Sequence record: OK283619.1
Reading direction: 5' to 3' (one strand)
Length of the DNA: 64,000 bases
From: Escherichia phage LPEK22
This document shows positions 3,001 through 21,428 of the stretch, in pieces. The first letter of the stretch is position 1. Every line of letters begins with the position of its first letter. Below the pieces are notes generated by a model. It did no database searches. It was not told the DNA's origin and saw nothing but the letters and a program-made list of their open reading frames with translations. The position numbers and the translations under genes were made by a program.

Positions 3001-3168
3001 AATGGATGGTGGTTTAAAGGCATTTTAGCAACTGACACAACTTCTGTTCCTGACAGGCCTTTTGGTAATGCGTCTGGTGACAGATATGATGTTATTGCTG
3101 GGGCATCAAATATTTTCGGGTATCGACATAATGGTACAACATGGGATGCAATGAAATTTACATCATAG
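1..3168 (+). CDS. Tailspike protein, 5'-partial (reading frame open to window start; track start at 70 is a TTG). Long N-terminal extension, then the shared anchor module, then a C-terminal domain.
   Basis: Frame has no stop from nt 1. Residues about 236-370 (VKDTEVVYFSVG...YRWDGTLPK...GAWLSVGDA) are about 70 percent identical to the N-termini of the ORFs at 3272 and 8300. Beta-helix or depolymerase fold of the C-terminal part is assumed, not shown. Confidence 0.75.
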   Translation, partial: PSPTRIGDSVTICDAYGKFATYPLTVSPSGNNLYGSTEDMAITTDNVSATFTWSGPEQGWVITSGVGLGQGRVYSREIFTQILASETSAVTLNTPPTIVDVYADGKRLAESKYSLDGNVITFSPSLPANTELQVIEYTPIQLGNGGGSGSSTITWVYNGGSAIGGETEITLDIVVDDVPAIDINGSRQYKNLGFTFDPLTSKITLAQELDAEDEVVVIINGTPNIYNQIDYTLREVARVTNVKDTEVVYFSVGAVLSGYKVIYDKITQRSYFIPELPTGTTAVSLSSSAVLVHSAGSVDLGALAVSREEYVTLAGTFDSGAVINTKNELLTHTDGKYRWDGTLPKTVAAGSTPATTGGVGSGAWLSVGDATARQWVANNYINSKFEKFGSFLQGSVLTTNEQALVDSSGLFWVKYGAIQSGGYTVAPGTVPDYPDFYCVGYLTDYDWQSVTNWGADNNYSIADKIGVDAVDAINLAGYHAEKRAELFGSQQVVMVPAGTYLLDKTTLVEGTAHGLTIYRNQEVMIFLRNNVTFIGDGDATLLYVADGVVERNKENGGTKGFVVFGDGIREIQNAYVHDMLIDENGDNNLVPPLNWSGAQAHCPAVACYEGSNGVTVSGVNVKNAPGANVMVFQEAQAAFNSYNTRVENCNFYRVADAVTGNSNLIDHSSIRIHSDGYVINNVKCIQPTMSDMCTVFECHGNGIVDGCITKKARYPFLKANDGATSTSIVTFTNNVCEDAGSALVLDTVPNVTTVARFIGNTVTLRSEKQVIGYPNTAAFTTQQPSVLSSDPTTINAIIYSANNNILQKNRAADWTTEQKAANVAYDLDYFKEVVSENNTFSGFWGCVRLGKQKTGATFNSNDSFVSCGTNGSPQLSDNTAIRFTNKFANDYLVHLDEMHIKWNMTKCQFGGVLGLLQQAAGVTVGVVQFTADIKTDRWMHPALGIAPLSVQDYYFNIDVYSDVNTSEPLYGYAGIHGQINVDSPTQPYVKQFYKYKPNTQNGWWFKGILATDTTSVPDRPFGNASGDRYDVIAGASNIFGYRHNGTTWDAMKFTS

Positions 3169-3170
3169 TA

Positions 3171-3198
3171 AAAACCCCGCTTCGGCGGGGTTCTTATT
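3171..3198 (+). terminator. Rho-independent terminator after the first tailspike gene
   Basis: ccccgcttcggcgggg hairpin plus ttcttatt. Confidence 0.75.
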
Positions 3199-3231
3199 AT
3201 ATCCATGTTTATAAAATTTTGTTAATTCAGA

Positions 3232-3238
3232 CTAAATA
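3232..3238 (+). promoter_or_regulatory. Late-promoter-like motif CTAAATA(cc) upstream of a tailspike gene
   Basis: T4 late promoters are TATAAATA. The variant [C/T]TAAATAcc recurs upstream of many late genes in this window. Confidence 0.45.
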
Positions 3239-3271
3239 CCCCATATTGGTCATCCTTTATGGGGTATTATC

Positions 3272-5368
3272 ATGATTTCTCAATTCAATCAACCACGCGG
3301 CTCCACTTCCATAGAAGTTAACAAACAATCTATCGCTCGAAATTTCGGTGTCAAAGAAGACGAAGTCATTTATTTCACTGTCGGTATTGATCTCAGCGGA
3401 TTTAAAGTAATTTATGATGAGTCTACCCAACGGGCTTATTCTCTTCCTTCAGGTATTGTTTCAGGAACGACTGCGATAAGTCTGAACGAACAAGCCATCC
3501 TTACTCATTCTTCTGGCTCTGTTGATCTCGGGGAATTAGCAGTAAGCCGCGAAGAATATGTGACTTTACCTGGTTCTTTTAATTTCGGCCATACTATTAA
3601 TGTGAAAAATGAACTTCTTGTTCACGATGATGAAAAATATCGATGGGATGGTGCATTACCTAAAGTTGTTCCTGCTGGTTCAACTCCAGCATCAACTGGT
3701 GGCGTTGGTTTAGGTGCTTGGGTTAGTGTTGGTGATGCTGCATTTAGGCAGGAAGCTAATAAGAAATTCAAATATTCAGTAAAGTTATCTGATTATTCTA
3801 CATTACAGGATGCAGCGACAGCAGCCGTAGATGGATTGCTTATTGATGTTGACTACACTTTTACTGCAGATGAGAATGTAGATTTTAGCGGTAAAGTTTT
3901 AATCATTGAATGCAAAGGAAAATTCATTGGCGATGGTATGTTGGTTTGGAATGGTTTGGGTGCGGGCTCAGTAATTAAGAAACCGCACATGCATACTAAA
4001 ACTACGCCGTATACTGTTTACCGATTCGATGCAAACGGTAATTGGGTTACAGACCCAACACAAGTTCTGGCATCTGTTCAGCAGCGTTTGGATGTTGGAT
4101 ATAAGCCAAATATTAACGATTTAGATATTTGGGACGACCTTCCTGATAATGTAAAAAATCAGGTTGCTGGTGCTACTTTGCGAATAATGAGCGGCGATAA
4201 TATCATCGTAGAGAACCCAGAAGCTACATTTGGTGGTTATCTATTTACTTTATGTAATAGGATTCTTGTTAAGAATCCACGCAATTTTATTGCTTTGGAA
4301 TCGGGCATTACATTTGAGAACCATCATACAACTGCATGGGGTACTGGCAACTGGGTTGTTGGGGGTGAGATAAAATATGGCTCTGGTTCCGCTGTACTGT
4401 TCATTCGCAATGATGGTGGTACAGACCATGATGGTGGAGTAAGGGATTTAATCTCATACCGTGTTGGAGAATCAGGTATTAAAACCTATCAGAACGAAAT
4501 TGGAGGTCGTTCAGCCAGGAACTACCGTTTAGTGTTCGACAATATAACTACAATCCAGTGTTACTATGATGGTATTGATGTTAATGCTGACACAGGGTCG
4601 CCAACTGAACGTGTGGATGACTACTCACTCGCAGAGTATCCATGGTTCCACCTACCTACTCAACATATCATCCGTAATATTATTACTCGTGATTGTATGG
4701 GGATTGGTGCTTGGTGGGATGGTCAGAAAAATATTATTGATAATGTTGTTACTTATGAGGCCCATAAGGAAGGCGTCTTCGATAGGGGTACTAACAATGA
4801 TATTACTAACATTACTGTAGTAGGTGCGAATAAGGATTTAACTAACCTAAATCAGCTTACCTGTGAGGGAGGTAGTAGACTTCGTGGTATTAACATCCAT
4901 GCATATACTACACAAGGTTACGCTATATACGCTCCGTCTTCAGAAGTAAGTAATGTTTCCTGTGCTGGTTCCGGTACTAAGAAATTACTATGTACCTATA
5001 TAAGCGATATTCAGGGAGGTAATATCAATGTTCAGCATAGTGCCAACCAAATGACACTTGCAATGCAACCTGCTATGGGTGGTACTACAAACCCATCTTT
5101 GCTTATGACGGCAGATTGCCAGGTTGCTACACCAGGGGGTGAGGCAAGTATTGTCAAGCTTTCGGCAATTCAGGAGGGTGTACGTGTAGGTGAGTTTCAG
5201 CTTAACCGCTTAGGCTTTAAGCATATGAGTATACCTGCTGCCCCTTTACAATTACCAGAGAGCGCTCTGGAACATAATTCATCTATAGGATTCTTCTTCG
5301 GAAGTGACGGAGCATTGAGGTTGCTTGCTAAAAAACCAGATGGAAGTTATGTAACATACACACTTTAA
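3272..5368 (+). CDS. Tailspike protein (698 aa) with N-terminal shared anchor module
   Basis: ATG start. N-terminal 150 aa (VKEDEVIYFTVG...YRWDGALPKVVPAGSTPASTGGVGLGAWVSVGDA) matches the module in the other tailspikes. Preceded by terminator and late-promoter-like motif. Confidence 0.8.
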   Translation: MISQFNQPRGSTSIEVNKQSIARNFGVKEDEVIYFTVGIDLSGFKVIYDESTQRAYSLPSGIVSGTTAISLNEQAILTHSSGSVDLGELAVSREEYVTLPGSFNFGHTINVKNELLVHDDEKYRWDGALPKVVPAGSTPASTGGVGLGAWVSVGDAAFRQEANKKFKYSVKLSDYSTLQDAATAAVDGLLIDVDYTFTADENVDFSGKVLIIECKGKFIGDGMLVWNGLGAGSVIKKPHMHTKTTPYTVYRFDANGNWVTDPTQVLASVQQRLDVGYKPNINDLDIWDDLPDNVKNQVAGATLRIMSGDNIIVENPEATFGGYLFTLCNRILVKNPRNFIALESGITFENHHTTAWGTGNWVVGGEIKYGSGSAVLFIRNDGGTDHDGGVRDLISYRVGESGIKTYQNEIGGRSARNYRLVFDNITTIQCYYDGIDVNADTGSPTERVDDYSLAEYPWFHLPTQHIIRNIITRDCMGIGAWWDGQKNIIDNVVTYEAHKEGVFDRGTNNDITNITVVGANKDLTNLNQLTCEGGSRLRGINIHAYTTQGYAIYAPSSEVSNVSCAGSGTKKLLCTYISDIQGGNINVQHSANQMTLAMQPAMGGTTNPSLLMTADCQVATPGGEASIVKLSAIQEGVRVGEFQLNRLGFKHMSIPAAPLQLPESALEHNSSIGFFFGSDGALRLLAKKPDGSYVTYTL

Positions 5369-5380
5369 TTTATCTTGAGC

Positions 5381-5409
5381 AAAAACCCCGCTTTGGCGGG
5401 GTTCTTATT
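5381..5409 (+). terminator. Rho-independent terminator after the second tailspike gene
   Basis: ccccgctttggcgggg hairpin plus ttcttatt. Confidence 0.75.
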
Positions 5410-5441
5410 ATACCTTTGTTCATAAATTTTATTAGTTCAGA

Positions 5442-5448
5442 CTAAATA
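5442..5448 (+). promoter_or_regulatory. Late-promoter-like motif CTAAATA(cc)
   Basis: Same motif, upstream of the third tailspike gene. Confidence 0.45.
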
Positions 5449-5483
5449 CCCCATATTGGCAAATCCTTATGGGGTATTTTCAA

Positions 5484-8249
5484 ATGACCAGAAATGTAGA
5501 AGAATTATTCGGCGGCGTAATCACAGCTCCCCACCAGATTCCTTTCACGTATAAATCAAATGTCGGTGGAGAAACTTTCCTTTCTTTGCCGTTCCATCCC
5601 GTCACTGGTGTTATCACAATCAACGGTGGTATGCAAGTTCCGTTAGACAACTTTGAAATCGAAGGAAATACATTGAATCTCGGACGCGCATTGTCCAAAG
5701 GCGATGTTGTGTATTGCTTATTCGATAAAATTCTTTCGCCAGAAGATACAGCCAAAGGTATCCGCATATACAAATTTCAGGCCGTAGGAGGTGAAACCGA
5801 GTTCACTCCTGATTTCACATCTTATGGAGTCCAATCTCTTTATATCGGTGGCGAGTACAAAACCCCCGAAATTGAATATTCCTATGACAGTACGACAGGA
5901 AAAGTATCTTTGCAAACTGCACTGACTGCAGGCGTTTGGGTAGTCGCTGAAATGTCTGTTAAACAACCGAATATCAGTCCGGCGTTTGACCGAAGTATTC
6001 AAGAAATCGCCCGTTCTGCTAATGTAAAAGACTCTGAAGTCATCGTTAGTACGGACACCATATCTTTGTTGGATGGGAAGAAAGTTGTTTATGACATAGC
6101 GGCGCAAACCAGTTATGGTTTACCAACCATTCCTGATGGTTCTGTCATTTCTTCTGTATCTGCTGGGAAATTGAATTACAATCCAGGTGATGTGCAGGTT
6201 GATTTGTTGCCTTTAGAAGATTCATTTATTAATGTGATAAACACTCTGGGGCGAAATGATGGTGCCAAGTATATTGGAGAATGCCATTCTGTTGCTGATC
6301 TCAGGAATACTGAACCCACTATGGATGGACAACGCATTATTCTTAAGCAACACACTGCGGGTACTCTTCTTGGTGGAGGGGTATTCCGTGCGTTAATTGA
6401 TGGTACAGGAAAGACTGATAATAACGGTACTGTGATCAAAACTGTTGGCGGCGCAGCATGGTTACGTGTTAATGCTGATAGAGTTAACCCATTCATGTTT
6501 GGTGCTTTGGGTGGTTCTAATGATGATACTATTCCAGTACAATCTTGTGTGGATAGTGGTAAGGCCACACAATTAACTGGTGTACATTACGTTAGCAATA
6601 TCCAGTTAAAATATAATACGTCGTCTATTTATGGGTCTGGATTACATTACTCAAGGTTGCATCAGTTGCCTTCTGCTACTGGGAATTGTATTACCATAAA
6701 AGATACATGCTCCCTTATTGTATTAGACGCCTTTGGGGTATATGGCACAGGTGCACAACAAGGCACGTCATTTACTGCGGGCACAACAGGTATCTATGTA
6801 GAAACTCCTTCAGGTCTCTCAGCCGATTATCCGTTCCACACTACCGCAGACCCAAGACGGGACTTGTGTATTTCTAAGGTCCATATAGCAGGTTTTGATG
6901 AATATGGGTTAAATATTGATAGTGGTAACTTTAGTGTTACTACAGATTCTCTTTTAGTCAACCACATCAATCAGGTGGGTGTCCGTTGTGCTACTACTGA
7001 TTGGACTTGGACAAATATCCAGGTTAATACCTGCGGTAAACAATGTCTAGTTCTTGATGGTTGTGGTAATGGTCGTATTATTGGCGGTAAATTCATTTGG
7101 GCTAACTGGCAACCTTATGGTACAGTAGGACAGTTCCCAGGCATTACTATTAATAACAGCCAGAATATGGTTATTAATGGTATTGAGGTACAAGATTGTG
7201 GCGGGAATGGTATTGAGATTAGCGAGTCATATTCAATTTCCATGAACGGATTGAACACCAATCGTAACGGCATCAATGCTAACAACACTTTCTACAACAT
7301 CGTATTTAACAAAAGTGATGCAGTTATCAACGGATTCGTAGGACTCAATTATGCCGCGAATAGTGGTTCAGGTGCTAACTCTAGTGCAGGCAATTTTCAG
7401 TTCCTGTCTAATGATTGTAGTGTCACCATTAATGGTGTGGTTGAGACTGGTTATATGGGCATTAACTTTATTGGTGATAACAATATTATCAACCCCACCA
7501 ATTCCGACCTGAGCATTAACGGATTGGTTAATTATTCCAAGACTGGTTTGCAAACCATGAACGAGACCCCTACATTTGATGGTGTTAGCACTACACCTGT
7601 TTATGTAAGTGTCCCATCTTCTGTAGGGCAAGTAAATGGTCTGAGACTATCACAAGCCAACAAAGATAAATTACTGTATTCAAGAACAGCAGGTCCAGAA
7701 GGTATTACCATGGCTGCTGTTGTAGTACCCACCATATCTGGAGCTGAAGTATTTAACTTCATGGCCATTGGTTCAGGGTTTAGTGATACATCCAACAGTC
7801 TTCATCTTCAATTAGTTATAGACGCTTCTGGAAAACAAACAATTGCTTTGCTATTGGGGGGCGATGGTACAACCCAAATTTTATCTGGGGATTTACCTAA
7901 CGACCTTAAACTACAAAGTGGTGTACCATATCATATAGCTATTGGTGCTAAACCTGGATATTTCTGGTGGAGTATTCTTAATATTCAGACGGGTAAGAGA
8001 ATCAGACGGTCATTCCGAGGCGCTTATTTAGCCGTACCATTTAATTCTATATTCGGATTAACTTCTTCATTAACATTCTTCTCGGATAGCAATGCTGGTG
8101 GGGATGCTTGTTCTGGGGTGGGCGCTAAAGTGTATGTTGGTATGTTCTCTTCCGAGAACGATTATGTAGCTTCACGATACTACAATCTGATTAATCCGGT
8201 AGACCCTACTAAGTTAATTAGTTACCGTATATTGGATTCTTCTATTTAA
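5484..8249 (+). CDS. Tailspike protein (about 921 aa) with N-terminal extension and a diverged anchor module
   Basis: ATG at 5484 preferred over the in-frame ATG at 5469, which lies inside the upstream hairpin. Residues about 180-250 (ANVKDSEVIV...VVYDIAAQTSYGLP) are a diverged copy of the module. C-terminal domain fold not verified. Confidence 0.7.
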   Translation: MTRNVEELFGGVITAPHQIPFTYKSNVGGETFLSLPFHPVTGVITINGGMQVPLDNFEIEGNTLNLGRALSKGDVVYCLFDKILSPEDTAKGIRIYKFQAVGGETEFTPDFTSYGVQSLYIGGEYKTPEIEYSYDSTTGKVSLQTALTAGVWVVAEMSVKQPNISPAFDRSIQEIARSANVKDSEVIVSTDTISLLDGKKVVYDIAAQTSYGLPTIPDGSVISSVSAGKLNYNPGDVQVDLLPLEDSFINVINTLGRNDGAKYIGECHSVADLRNTEPTMDGQRIILKQHTAGTLLGGGVFRALIDGTGKTDNNGTVIKTVGGAAWLRVNADRVNPFMFGALGGSNDDTIPVQSCVDSGKATQLTGVHYVSNIQLKYNTSSIYGSGLHYSRLHQLPSATGNCITIKDTCSLIVLDAFGVYGTGAQQGTSFTAGTTGIYVETPSGLSADYPFHTTADPRRDLCISKVHIAGFDEYGLNIDSGNFSVTTDSLLVNHINQVGVRCATTDWTWTNIQVNTCGKQCLVLDGCGNGRIIGGKFIWANWQPYGTVGQFPGITINNSQNMVINGIEVQDCGGNGIEISESYSISMNGLNTNRNGINANNTFYNIVFNKSDAVINGFVGLNYAANSGSGANSSAGNFQFLSNDCSVTINGVVETGYMGINFIGDNNIINPTNSDLSINGLVNYSKTGLQTMNETPTFDGVSTTPVYVSVPSSVGQVNGLRLSQANKDKLLYSRTAGPEGITMAAVVVPTISGAEVFNFMAIGSGFSDTSNSLHLQLVIDASGKQTIALLLGGDGTTQILSGDLPNDLKLQSGVPYHIAIGAKPGYFWWSILNIQTGKRIRRSFRGAYLAVPFNSIFGLTSSLTFFSDSNAGGDACSGVGAKVYVGMFSSENDYVASRYYNLINPVDPTKLISYRILDSSI

Positions 8250-18556: not shown

Positions 18557-19237
18557 ATGAGCAATATGTCAGAAAGGTTACTCGCCACGCTTGATGCAGT
18601 GACCGCCCGAGACGAAGTCGGGAAGGAGGCGATGGAGGCTGTCGCCCCTCGTCCAGGTATTGACTTCGATGAAAATACAGGTGAATGGTTTGGTGAACGT
18701 CCGGAAGGGTATCAGCCGATTCCTGAACCTCCTTCATTGGAGGATATTGCTTCCAAGGAATCCAAAGTACCTGAGTTTGCGGACACTGATGCTACAACGG
18801 ATTACAAACGGATACGCGACACAACATATGCCATGCAAGAAGCCACAATGTTCATGATGGGACAAGCCGCTAAATTGGCTGCATCCACAGAAGCTCCGCG
18901 AGCATTTTCTGTTTTCCGTGAATTGGGTGAACTCATGCGCGGTCTGAATAAAGACTTGATGGAAAACCAGAAAACCATCAAGGCAGTAACAGGTGATAAA
19001 GAACCACCTGTTGATGACACGACAGTGGATGTTACAACTTCACCAGACGGAACAACAACAGTATCGGTTGGGAAAAAGGCGCGATCTTCTCGCGATTTAT
19101 TGAAGACGATTGAAGATGCCCGCCGTCGCGCTGAAGAAAGATCACAAGCAAAGGCCGCACAACAACCAGAAGATGAAATCATTGATGGTGAAACAGTTGA
19201 TGTGAAGGAAGAAGACGATGGCGTATCAGAAGCGTGA
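18557..19237 (+). CDS. Terminase small subunit, T4 gp16-like
   Basis: ATG at 18557 after RBS ggagga (track start at 18551 is TTG). Position immediately upstream of, and overlapping, the large terminase. Weak similarity to T4 gp16. Confidence 0.65.
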   Translation: MSNMSERLLATLDAVTARDEVGKEAMEAVAPRPGIDFDENTGEWFGERPEGYQPIPEPPSLEDIASKESKVPEFADTDATTDYKRIRDTTYAMQEATMFMMGQAAKLAASTEAPRAFSVFRELGELMRGLNKDLMENQKTIKAVTGDKEPPVDDTTVDVTTSPDGTTTVSVGKKARSSRDLLKTIEDARRRAEERSQAKAAQQPEDEIIDGETVDVKEEDDGVSEA

Positions 19238-21428
19238 TATAGAATATGCCCCAATTAAAACGGGGTTCAAAATAGACGATGTGAAATTGCGTATGGACCA
19301 AACGTTCATGCGCAAACCTTCTGTGCGTGCTCCCCGAGTCGAGTTAATGCTGACAGATGAACAAGAAGACGAATTCGTTGAATGTTCAATGGACGCGCAT
19401 TACTTCGCCGCCAACTATTACAAGATAACCACGATCGATAAAGGCTTTATCCTTTTCGATATGCATGATTATCAGAAGCAGTTGTTCCATGACTTTCAGG
19501 ACTATCGATTCAATGCGGTCGTCCAGGCTCGTCAGTCCGGTAAATGCGTCCGTGGTGATACTCTTGTTTATGTCTATGATACAATCAGTCAACAAGAGTT
19601 GCATCTCACCATAGAAGAGCTTCACAAGCGCTTCGAAGGACCTAACCATGCTGTGCCACTGAATACCATTGGCAACCACAATAAGTTTGTAGACAGCCGT
19701 TTCGGGAAACGATATTTTGTTGAGTCCGACACTGGCTGGGTTCCGGTTATTGCCGCTCATAAAACGAAAGAATACGCTGAATACGTTGTCAGGACTGAAA
19801 CCGGACGCACAATTCATGTCGCAGATGAGCACATGTTCTTCAATGAATATGGGCGCGAAGTATTTGCTAAAGACATGGAGGCCGGAGATGCCATAATGAC
19901 CCAGGAGGGAATAGAATTCATCTCTGAGATCTGGGAGACTGGTGAGTACCACCACATGTATGACTTGCAAGTCAAGTCCAGCGATCAACGTTATTACACG
20001 AATGGGTTCCTCAGCCATAATACCACGGTCGTGGCTGCGTTTCTTCTTTGGTATGCGATGTTCCACTCAGACAAAGAAATCGCGGTACTGGCAAACAAAG
20101 AGAAACAAGCGATTGAAATTCTTGACCGTATCAGGAAGGCGTATCAGGACCTCCCATTCTTCCTTCAGCAGGGTTGTGAGAAGTTTGGTTCTACACTGAT
20201 AGAGTTTGAGAACGGCTCTAAGATATATGCTTATGCAACGTCTTCGGACTCTATTCGTGGTCGTTCTGTATCTCTCTTGTACGTGGACGAAGTAGCGTTC
20301 ATCGAAAATGACTTTGAATTTTGGGAATCAACATTCCCAGCGATCGCATCTGCTGATACTTCACGTTGTATCCTGACCAGTACTCCGAAAGGCCAGCGAG
20401 GGTTGTTCTACGATATCGTTACAAAAGCCGACCCACGCCATCCACAATACAACGATTTCCATCTTACCGAAGTCCCTTGGTACAAGGTTCCGGCGTACAC
20501 CAAAGACCCTGATTGGGAAACCAAACAACGCGCTCGTCTGGGGGATGCTCGTTTCGATCAAGAATTTGGCATTAAGTTCCGTGGTTCCGTGGGTTCATTG
20601 ATTCCGGCCAAATGCTTAGATAAAATGACGTCCAAGTTGTATCGGGAACCTAATGAATTCACCAAGATTTATAAGGAATACGACCCACAACGTCTCTACT
20701 TTGGGATTGCGGACACTGGGAAGGGGGTGGAAGGAGATTATTCCGTCTTAACAATTCTGGATATAACTGAATATCCGCATGTCATAGCAGCCAAGTACAG
20801 GAATAACACGATACCTCCTATGATGTATGCATACACGATAGCTGATATGTGCACCGAATACGGGGAATGCCCTGTCCTTGTTGAAACAAACAACGACGTC
20901 GGTGGACAGGTTATCACGATCTTGTATCAAGAAATTGAGTATCCAGAGATCATATTCACGTCGACGGATAACAAAGGGACAGGGAAACGGATTGGTGGTC
21001 GTAAACCAGAGCCAGGCATTAACACCAACAGGAAAGTGCGATCTATTGGTTGTGCTAACCTGAAAGCGCTTATTGAGAAAGAAATGTTGGTGATCGAAGA
21101 CCAAGACACGATAGATGAACTCAGCACATTCGTGTTCCGTGGTGCGCGTTATGAAGCAGATGATGGATGCCACGACGACTGCGTTATGCCGTTGGTATTA
21201 TATTCTTGGGCAGTTAAACAAGAATGGTTCAGTGATCTGACTTCTACCAGTATTTCTCAAGACATGAGAAATAGAATGTCTTCGACTGAGTCACAACAAG
21301 TATTCCCGTTTGGTGGTTTAGTCGTGGGAGACACTCCATCTGGAACTGAGCATCTCCCTGGGTTCGGTGGTGTTCAAGTCTTCGACGAACGTTCAGGGAT
21401 GACAATGGACGAGTGGTTTAAGAATTGA
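19218..21428 (+). CDS. Terminase large subunit, T4 gp17-like, interrupted by an in-frame mini-intein
   Basis: Exteins join as ARQSGK|TTVVAAFLLW, matching the T4 gp17 Walker A (SRQLGKTTVVAIFL). Downstream ATPase and nuclease regions are colinear with gp17. Confidence 0.9.
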   Translation: MAYQKRDIEYAPIKTGFKIDDVKLRMDQTFMRKPSVRAPRVELMLTDEQEDEFVECSMDAHYFAANYYKITTIDKGFILFDMHDYQKQLFHDFQDYRFNAVVQARQSGKCVRGDTLVYVYDTISQQELHLTIEELHKRFEGPNHAVPLNTIGNHNKFVDSRFGKRYFVESDTGWVPVIAAHKTKEYAEYVVRTETGRTIHVADEHMFFNEYGREVFAKDMEAGDAIMTQEGIEFISEIWETGEYHHMYDLQVKSSDQRYYTNGFLSHNTTVVAAFLLWYAMFHSDKEIAVLANKEKQAIEILDRIRKAYQDLPFFLQQGCEKFGSTLIEFENGSKIYAYATSSDSIRGRSVSLLYVDEVAFIENDFEFWESTFPAIASADTSRCILTSTPKGQRGLFYDIVTKADPRHPQYNDFHLTEVPWYKVPAYTKDPDWETKQRARLGDARFDQEFGIKFRGSVGSLIPAKCLDKMTSKLYREPNEFTKIYKEYDPQRLYFGIADTGKGVEGDYSVLTILDITEYPHVIAAKYRNNTIPPMMYAYTIADMCTEYGECPVLVETNNDVGGQVITILYQEIEYPEIIFTSTDNKGTGKRIGGRKPEPGINTNRKVRSIGCANLKALIEKEMLVIEDQDTIDELSTFVFRGARYEADDGCHDDCVMPLVLYSWAVKQEWFSDLTSTSISQDMRNRMSSTESQQVFPFGGLVVGDTPSGTEHLPGFGGVQVFDERSGMTMDEWFKN
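19545..20021 (+). mobile_element. Mini-intein (159 aa) inserted between the Lys and Thr of the terminase P-loop
   Basis: Begins with Cys (CVRGDTLVYVYD), ends with His-Asn (NGFLSHN), +1 residue is Thr. Contains a TxxH-type block B (GRTIHVADEH). No LAGLIDADG or HNH endonuclease domain evident. Confidence 0.85.

Follow-up and report, generated by a model that had tools for sequence, protein, structure and literature searches.

Terminases are a common target of inteins, and the position between the Lys and the Thr of the P-loop (K/T) is regarded as a 'classic' intein site (Kelley et al. 2016, PMC5050341; Novikova et al. 2016). In the Ackermannviridae, an intein at this position was annotated in 2013 in the large terminase (TerL) of Salmonella phage Marshall: GenBank record KF669653 reads "intein from Cys110 to Asn268" and carries mat_peptide features, and the Marshall genome announcement, one of two that mention the intein, states that the terminase is interrupted by it. 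TerL of Salmonella phage Mooltan and of Klebsiella phage Magnus is annotated likewise, the excised intein is a named protein in NCBI nr, and a 2024 study lists a "terminase large subunit precursor". Here we analyzed the TerL gene of Escherichia phage LPEK22 (OK283619.1) in a stretch of 64,000 nucleotides, referred to below as the window. The source phage is a Kuttervirus (Ackermannviridae) of the Vi01-like type, named for Salmonella phage Vi01, and a preliminary description of the window had proposed that a mini-intein splits the Walker A motif of its TerL. This element is already known. It is the intein of the sister phages Marshall, Maynard, Mooltan and Magnus, with gene, site and boundaries (Cys110-Asn268) all the same, and it is a real but ordinary example. 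At the amino acid level the window copy is 99.4% identical to the Marshall and Mooltan copies and 84% identical to that of Magnus. The Marshall, Mooltan and Magnus reports are one-sentence annotations based on InterPro, without blocks, distribution, allele structure or a splicing test, and nothing substantive in them differs from what is described below.

Both boundaries of the insert could be read directly from the DNA. At the 5' junction CAG TCC GGT AAA is followed by TGC GTC CGT, and at the 3' junction AGC CAT AAT is followed by ACC ACG GTC. The insert between them starts at 19545 and ends at 20021; it is 477 nucleotides (nt) or 159 amino acids (aa) long, occupies precursor codons 110-268 in frame, and runs from a Cys to a terminal His-Asn with Thr at +1, as had been claimed for it. 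The extein flanks are AVVQARQSGK on the N-terminal side and TTVVAAFLLWYA on the C-terminal side. Removal of the insert yields ARQSGK/TTVVAAF in a product of 577 aa and places the insertion site after the Walker A Lys (K109) and before the Thr (T269). This product aligned with T4 gp17 (3ezk, E = 3.4e-76) without a gap across the junction, with ARQSGKTTVVAAFL (aRQsGKTTVVAaFL) lying over SRQLGKTTVVAIFL, the Walker A motif of T4 gp17, which bears out the earlier claim that the P-loop is restored when the insert is taken away. Over residues 28-516 the spliced TerL matched the gp17 structures 3ezk and 3cpe with E about 1e-75, and it has the gp17-type (Terminase_6) architecture, in which an ATPase with Walker A and B motifs at the N-terminus is joined to an RNase H-like nuclease at the C-terminus. 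In the unspliced precursor, the Terminase_6N profile matched with E = 3e-16 and Terminase_6C scored 20.0 against a cut-off of 22.6. By computation the precursor weighs 84.7 kDa, the ligated extein 66.2 kDa and the intein 18.6 kDa, in agreement with the approximately 66 and 18 kDa given previously.

We consider it highly likely that the insert is a class 1 mini-intein of the HINT superfamily, devoid of an endonuclease and located in the Walker A motif of a gp17-type TerL. As had been suggested in the preliminary description, the insert was compared with intein profiles. TIGR01445 (intein_Nterm) scored 25.4 bits, above its cut-off of 24.5, and the short C-terminal model TIGR01443 remained below threshold (11.9 against 15.6). 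Sequence matches to solved inteins were obtained with gp41-1 (6qaz, E = 8e-4), a CDC21 intein and the engineered Cat consensus intein (6dsl, E = 4e-3). An AlphaFold2 model of the intein, built on an alignment of 25 sequences, had a mean predicted local distance difference test (pLDDT) of 94.6 and a predicted template modeling (pTM) score of 0.87. When this model was compared with the PDB using Foldseek, inteins or bacterial intein-like (BIL) domains accounted for 50 of the 50 matches listed, at probability 1.00; they included VidaL (6vgv, E = 3e-11), gp41-1, NpuDnaB, the RecA mini-intein and GyrA, with template modeling (TM) scores of 0.7-0.85. The profile and fold matches are far better than chance would give. 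The G+C content of the intein is that of the exteins.

Residue conservation was judged over 25 homologues with identities down to about 31%. Because a query with the intein alone gave too little for an alignment, the full precursor was used to collect homologues; in an index of 5.8 billion proteins the intein-only query returned two proteins and bore out the nr entry 'intein [Salmonella phage Maynard / Marshall]'. Among the invariant residues are C1, A93, D94, H96, M138, D140, H158 and N159, and Thr+1 is nearly invariant. Block B corresponds to A93-D94-E95-H96, which aligns with SEEH of gp41-1 so that H96 falls on the block B His of that intein. Cys1, the C-terminal His-Asn and Thr+1, all named in the preliminary description as class 1 hallmarks, are therefore present, whereas the TxxH block listed with them is not, its place being taken by ADEH. 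In all other points that could be checked, the preliminary description was right.

Some observations weigh against the assignment. The Pfam Intein_splicing profile (PF14890) matched with E = 3.5e-8, yet its score of 33.9 bits lies under the gathering cut-off of 35.8. A regular expression search found no TxxH motif in the insert, and the residue at the expected Thr position is an Ala that is invariant in the family. The conservation of Thr+1 provides no independent evidence of splicing because the Walker A motif needs a Thr at this position anyway. Finally, we found no splicing experiment on any Ackermannviridae TerL intein in the searchable literature. The Thr of the block B TxxH motif is frequent but not universal, and hence not a defining feature. 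Two other assignments were rejected. A class 3 intein does not agree with the presence of Cys1, an Asp (D140) in block F, a single Cys and the lack of the Trp-Cys-Thr signature, and a naturally split intein or fractured gene is incompatible with one continuous ORF (open reading frame) of 736 codons.

The insert had been called too short to hold an endonuclease, and none was found in any frame. In the structural model everything belongs to the HINT fold except two short helices at residues 23-29 and 36-43. Residues 31-46 correspond to the position where relatives hold out-of-frame endonuclease ORFs of about 300 codons. Non-canonical inteins with out-of-frame or antisense homing endonucleases have been described in actinophages (Gosselin, Arsenault and Gogarten 2025, bioRxiv 10.1101/2025.01.02.630785). 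Because such inteins can pass for mini-inteins, we examined an antisense ORF of 226 aa (19386..20066, minus strand) that covers the whole intein. It had no Pfam match and is broken by one to four stops in Marshall, Vi01, CBA120 and every other relative tested, even though Marshall and Vi01 are 99.4% identical to the window in this region. We rejected it as a hidden endonuclease and regard it as a chance ORF. Neither the nested endonuclease ORFs of related inteins (L014 and L016, described below) nor the free-standing F-LimIX type had a homologue in the window, and no homing endonuclease separates the small terminase (TerS) gene from TerL in the source phage. The intein is thus a mini-intein with no endonuclease in frame, out of frame or antisense.

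The preliminary description had also called for a comparison with intein-free terminases of related phages, and precise intein-free alleles exist. The empty site RQSGK/TTVVAAFLLWYA was found in TerL of Vibrio phage K393 (580 aa) and in the metagenomic TerLs P0015-P0019 (575-581 aa), where RQSGK/TTVVAAF was read at both the DNA and the protein level in K393, P0015 and P0016 and at the protein level in P0017-P0019. P0015-P0019 are 74-85% identical to the query in the best BLASTP local alignment, at a query coverage of 60-64%. In the P0015 and P0016 contigs the gene order is gp15, TerS, TerL and sheath, as around TerL here, and the P0016 contig additionally carries neck genes upstream and tube and portal genes downstream. 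In a neighbor-joining tree of the exteins without bootstrap, genes with and without the intein are interspersed, and the intein-free P0015 nests within the intein-bearing enterobacterial clade. Many metagenomic T4-like phages, and phages of Vibrio, Campylobacter and Salicola, have related inteins at the same TerL site. Among cultured enterobacterial Ackermannviridae, on the other hand, 283 TerL records reach at least 60% identity in the extein and 278 do so in the intein, and DNA matches to the TerL gene cover the whole gene in 251 of 254 cases. The intein is therefore present in essentially all cultured members of this group (approximately 280 genomes) and is a long-term resident. Klebsiella phage KFM-TASP06 was considered as an intein-free member and rejected, as its assembly contains runs of N and the intein is present. 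In this genome (L002, PV588648) the N runs fall in TerL at 5280-5560 and 7090-7190, the gene is unannotated, and the megablast match ended 9 nt short of the intein, mimicking an empty or variant allele.

Comparison of alleles points to separate histories for the intein and the exteins. The window TerL DNA does not differ from that of Salmonella phages S8 and STP55 (100% identity), and its identity to the Vi01 gene is 95.7%. Between the window (the S8 allele) and CBA120, both Kuttervirus, nucleotide identity is 97% in the N-extein and 90% in the C-extein and falls to 72.5% in the intein. The CBA120 and GG32 inteins, by contrast, are 92-93% identical to the intein of the Aglimvirinae phage ZQ1, with exteins at 76-85% (for CBA120 itself, 93% in the intein and 76-82% in the exteins), while ZQ1 compared with other Aglimvirinae gives 74-76% for the intein and 89-90% for the exteins. 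These disagreements indicate that divergent intein alleles have been swapped as cassettes between genera and subfamilies of the Ackermannviridae, and the distribution and phylogeny of the insert are those of a mobile element, as had been supposed.

The window allele itself is a mosaic. It is CBA120-like (97%) up to gene nt 312-324 and Vi01-like (99.4-99.7%) from about nt 330 to about nt 1100 (about window position 20317), a segment comprising the intein plus about 300 nt downstream of it. Relative to the Vi01-like allele there are 3 differences in the 477-nt intein and 30 in the 327-nt N-extein (Fisher's test, p = 1e-9); a second Fisher's test on the positions of the mosaic differences gave p = 3e-23. 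The difference positions therefore place the crossover no more than a few bases from the 5' splice junction (nt 328), and allele replacement has proceeded through recombination in the conserved flanking codons of the P-loop. In pairs with unsaturated synonymous sites, the ratio of nonsynonymous to synonymous substitution rates (dN/dS) was 0.06-0.12 for the intein and 0.03-0.04 for the exteins, so that the intein is under purifying selection but less constrained than the terminase. Because TerL is essential, such selection would keep the intein competent for splicing. The family-wide survey, the allele replacement and the crossover coincident with the junction are modest additions that we did not find described in the searchable literature.

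Endonucleases are associated with this site in relatives of two kinds. Four distant relatives, L014-L017, have inteins of about 445 aa at the same K/T site, and each holds a +1-frame ORF of about 300 codons, two of them Vsr-like and two HNH/NUMOD3-like. The nested ORFs lie between the block A region and a KF[IV]xS motif that corresponds to residues 47-51 of the window intein. Across them the intein frame has 0 stops where 13-24 are expected (P < 1/5000 each), compared with 20-31 in the third frame. The arrangement is one of dual coding, here in T4-like metagenomic phages at the atypical N-terminal split position. A group I intron within the larger inteins was considered and rejected: there was no Rfam match in L014 and L015, and the extra DNA is the out-of-frame endonuclease ORF.

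The second kind is a free-standing MobE-like HNH/NUMOD3 endonuclease of the F-LimIX family, found between TerS and TerL in about 45 Ackermannviridae (Limestonevirus, Agtrevirus, some Kuttervirus and some Taipeivirus). Its gene of 880 nt sits exactly at the TerS/TerL junction, overlaps both neighbors, lies approximately 330 bp upstream of the intein site, and encodes a homologue of the nested HNH ORF (E = 2e-18). Between GG32 (Kuttervirus) and Bestiario (Taipeivirus) the endonuclease is 93.9% identical at the nucleotide level and the adjacent TerS 70%, which indicates a recent transfer of this mobile endonuclease between genera. The inteins of these two phages are only 71% identical, so the endonuclease moved without the intein. 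This case counts against exchange of the intein driven by the endonuclease, a candidate that we rejected as an explanation and keep only as a low-probability reading.

Table 1. Features of the TerL locus in the window, and endonuclease genes at the corresponding site in relatives (coordinates of their own records)
Feature	Position	Strand or frame	Basis or remark
Precursor ORF of TerL (gp17-type large terminase)	19218..21428	+	736 aa plus stop; Terminase_6N and Terminase_6C matches
N-extein (residues 1-109); its last residues, ARQSGK (19527..19544), are the first half of Walker A	19218..19544	+	direct reading, gp17 alignment
Predicted class 1 mini-intein (precursor residues C110-N268, 159 aa)	19545..20021	+	profiles, fold, invariant residues; same boundaries annotated in phage Marshall
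Block A, Cys1 (TGC), predicted nucleophile for the N-S acyl shift	19545..19547	+	invariant in 25/25; sole Cys of the intein
Intein residues 31-46: a loop modeled with lower confidence and the second of the short helices, both beyond helix 1	19635..19682	+	block pLDDT 85
Block B, GRTIHVADEHMFF	19803..19841	+	A93-D94-x-H96 invariant
Block F, HHMYDLQVKSS	19950..19982	+	invariant M138, D140
Block G, RYYTNGFLSHN	19989..20021	+	penultimate His158 and terminal Asn159 invariant
C-extein, residues 269-736, with Walker B and nuclease domain	20022..21425	+	profiles, gp17 alignment
Thr+1, first C-extein residue (T269)	20022..20024	+	predicted splice nucleophile and Walker A Thr in one
Walker B, LLYVDEVAF	20274..20300	+	within the C-extein
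Recombination junction in TerL	19529..19547 (gene nt 312-330)	+	positions of nt differences
Small terminase (TerS) gene	18557..19237	+	start placed by analogy with the Marshall annotation
Nested endonuclease ORFs	L014 2365-3249; L015 1830-2786; L016 895-1776; L017 772-1689	+1 frame	
F-LimIX-type endonucleases	L018 188-1072 (LIMEstone1 F-LimIX); L002 4043-4975; L019, L020, L021 about 3001-3882		

By analogy with the established class 1 pathway, splicing of this protein would take the following course. TerL would be translated as an 84.7-kDa precursor in which a HINT domain of 159 residues interrupts the ATP-binding loop. Cys1 would attack the carbonyl of K109 in an N-S acyl shift assisted by the block B His96, and Thr+1 would then attack the thioester to give a branched ester. 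Cyclization of Asn159 to a succinimide, assisted by His158 and Asp140, would free the 18.6-kDa intein, and an O-N shift would form the K-T bond of a 66.2-kDa TerL with an intact ARQSGKTT P-loop. The ligated protein would thus carry the K109-T269 junction peptide ...NAVVQARQSGKTTVVAAF.... Because the Walker A motif is interrupted, and following the argument that Kelley et al. made for TerL inteins, the precursor is expected to be unable to bind or hydrolyze ATP productively, and the packaging ATPase would be available only after splicing, as had been supposed.

It could be argued that the 159 residues are a permanent HINT-like domain that does not splice, or a variant that only cleaves, in which case TerL would function as the precursor or as two fragments. 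The conservation of the insert in almost all cultured members of the family agrees with this, as does the submitter label 'pretoxin HINT domain protein' in the Dickeya phages phiD3 and phiDP10.3. However, such a domain would leave the Walker A Lys and Thr 159 residues apart, the full set of class 1 splicing residues is invariant, and homologues exist that lack exactly these residues and nothing more. The intein also evolves faster than the exteins and is swapped independently of them, which would be unexpected of an integrated functional domain. We regard a permanent domain as very improbable. The preliminary description had itself named a conserved terminase domain without intein similarity as the finding that would speak against it, and the evidence from profiles, fold and empty sites excludes this. 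Still more remote, and in our judgment close to negligible, is another intervening element, such as a group I intron, or an endonuclease inserted antisense or out of frame, that stays in frame by chance. The antisense ORF across the insert could be taken as a hint of such an element, and endonuclease insertions that preserve the frame are known in phages and occur in the relatives of this intein. Against this, the in-frame translation is confidently predicted to fold as a HINT domain, the antisense ORF has no family match and contains stops in all relatives tested, and 477 nt are too short to hold an endonuclease.

A splicing intein being by far the best explanation, one may still ask why it has been retained. 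One suggestion is that it is kept for its usefulness: splicing conditional on temperature, redox or assembly state could serve as a timer that silences the terminase ATPase and nuclease until late infection. This would be an adaptive layer on top of splicing and not a replacement for it. It is consistent with near-fixation of an endonuclease-free intein (in approximately 278 of 283 cultured enterobacterial Ackermannviridae TerLs), with purifying selection on the intein, and with the clustering of inteins in P-loops, which has been argued to suggest selective retention (Novikova et al. 2016; Kelley et al. 2016). On the other hand, with its single Cys the intein can form no internal disulfide trap, and any intein in an essential gene should come under purifying selection. 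Moreover, intein-free relatives are found in syntenic phage contexts on large contigs, and one of them, P0015, is nested in the intein clade in the unbootstrapped tree. We think a timer quite unlikely. A broader proposal, which we also consider unlikely though worth stating, holds that the intein is no inert fossil. It combines the cassette swapping with P-loop crossovers, which the allele comparisons show, with near-fixation through mobilization in trans by endonucleases or through a role as splicing timer, both of which are speculative. Candidates for such mobilization would be the F-LimIX-type endonuclease upstream of the site in about 45 relatives and its homologues nested out of frame in related inteins.

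Additional observations concern the surroundings of the site. TerS and TerL overlap by 20 nt (19218..19237) in the window. In TerL of Vibrio phage VP-1 (P0084) and in P0053, P0080 and P0112, the ATPase domain runs into a GIY-YIG endonuclease after FDQE[FY]. These ORFs have no nuclease domain, and TerL is apparently interrupted again 3' of the intein site, with the gene in pieces or containing an intron. The metagenomic TerLs P0050 and P0100 have a second intein just before Walker B (IRGKS/C...HN/CALLYLDE), with Cys at +1, and this second site may be that of the split inteins of the AceL-TerL and GOS-TerL type.

In textbook fashion, the intein at this locus occupies the best-conserved codons of an essential ATPase, and the case leaves the current view of inteins unchanged. 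Its relevance is mainly for annotation: most of the approximately 280 related GenBank records say only "terminase large subunit", and precursor and mature TerL differ in size by 18.6 kDa. When the intein is included in terminase phylogenies or PCR markers, two evolutionary histories become mixed, and since alleles are exchanged like cassettes, trees of Ackermannviridae TerL should be made from the exteins only. As a well-sampled and culturable group, these phages could serve as a tractable system for asking why endonuclease-free inteins persist, and a compact, single-Cys, Thr+1 intein might interest protein engineers.

Among inteins outside this family, the mycobacteriophage TerL1-a inteins (PMC5050341) likewise lie where the invariant Lys meets the nucleophilic Thr of a terminase P-loop, and the same argument has been made for them, namely that the intein has to splice out before the ATPase can work and pentamers can assemble. 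Their host protein belongs to the Terminase_1 family, in contrast to the Terminase_6/gp17 type here, and the Terminase_6 inteins of that study are located in the C-motif and not in the P-loop. Several mycobacteriophage TerL inteins contain active endonucleases and have been shown to splice, whereas the window intein is endonuclease-free and its splicing is predicted.

By sequence and structure, the closest solved relatives of the window intein are gp41-1, VidaL and the Cat consensus. Inteins of the gp41-1, VidaL and Cat type are naturally split and trans-splicing, in contrast to the contiguous and presumably cis-splicing window intein with its Thr at +1. Cat-TerL is the consensus of the atypical split inteins GOS-TerL and AceL-TerL; all three have Cys at +1, which suggests a different insertion site in TerL. 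A split intein in a gp17-like terminase has an unusual N-terminal break after motif N1 (Dassa et al. 2009), and this break point corresponds to residues 31-46, approximately, of the window intein, the endonuclease position in its larger relatives. The non-canonical inteins of actinophages (10.1101/2025.01.02.630785) differ from the window intein, which has no nested ORF, and from L014-L017, which are from metagenomic T4-like phages. They resemble L014-L017, whose Vsr-like or HNH ORFs lie in the +1 frame with the intein frame open, in carrying endonucleases outside the intein frame. They also share with the alleles described here the pattern of near-identical inteins in diverged exteins, which was read in that study as recent transfer.

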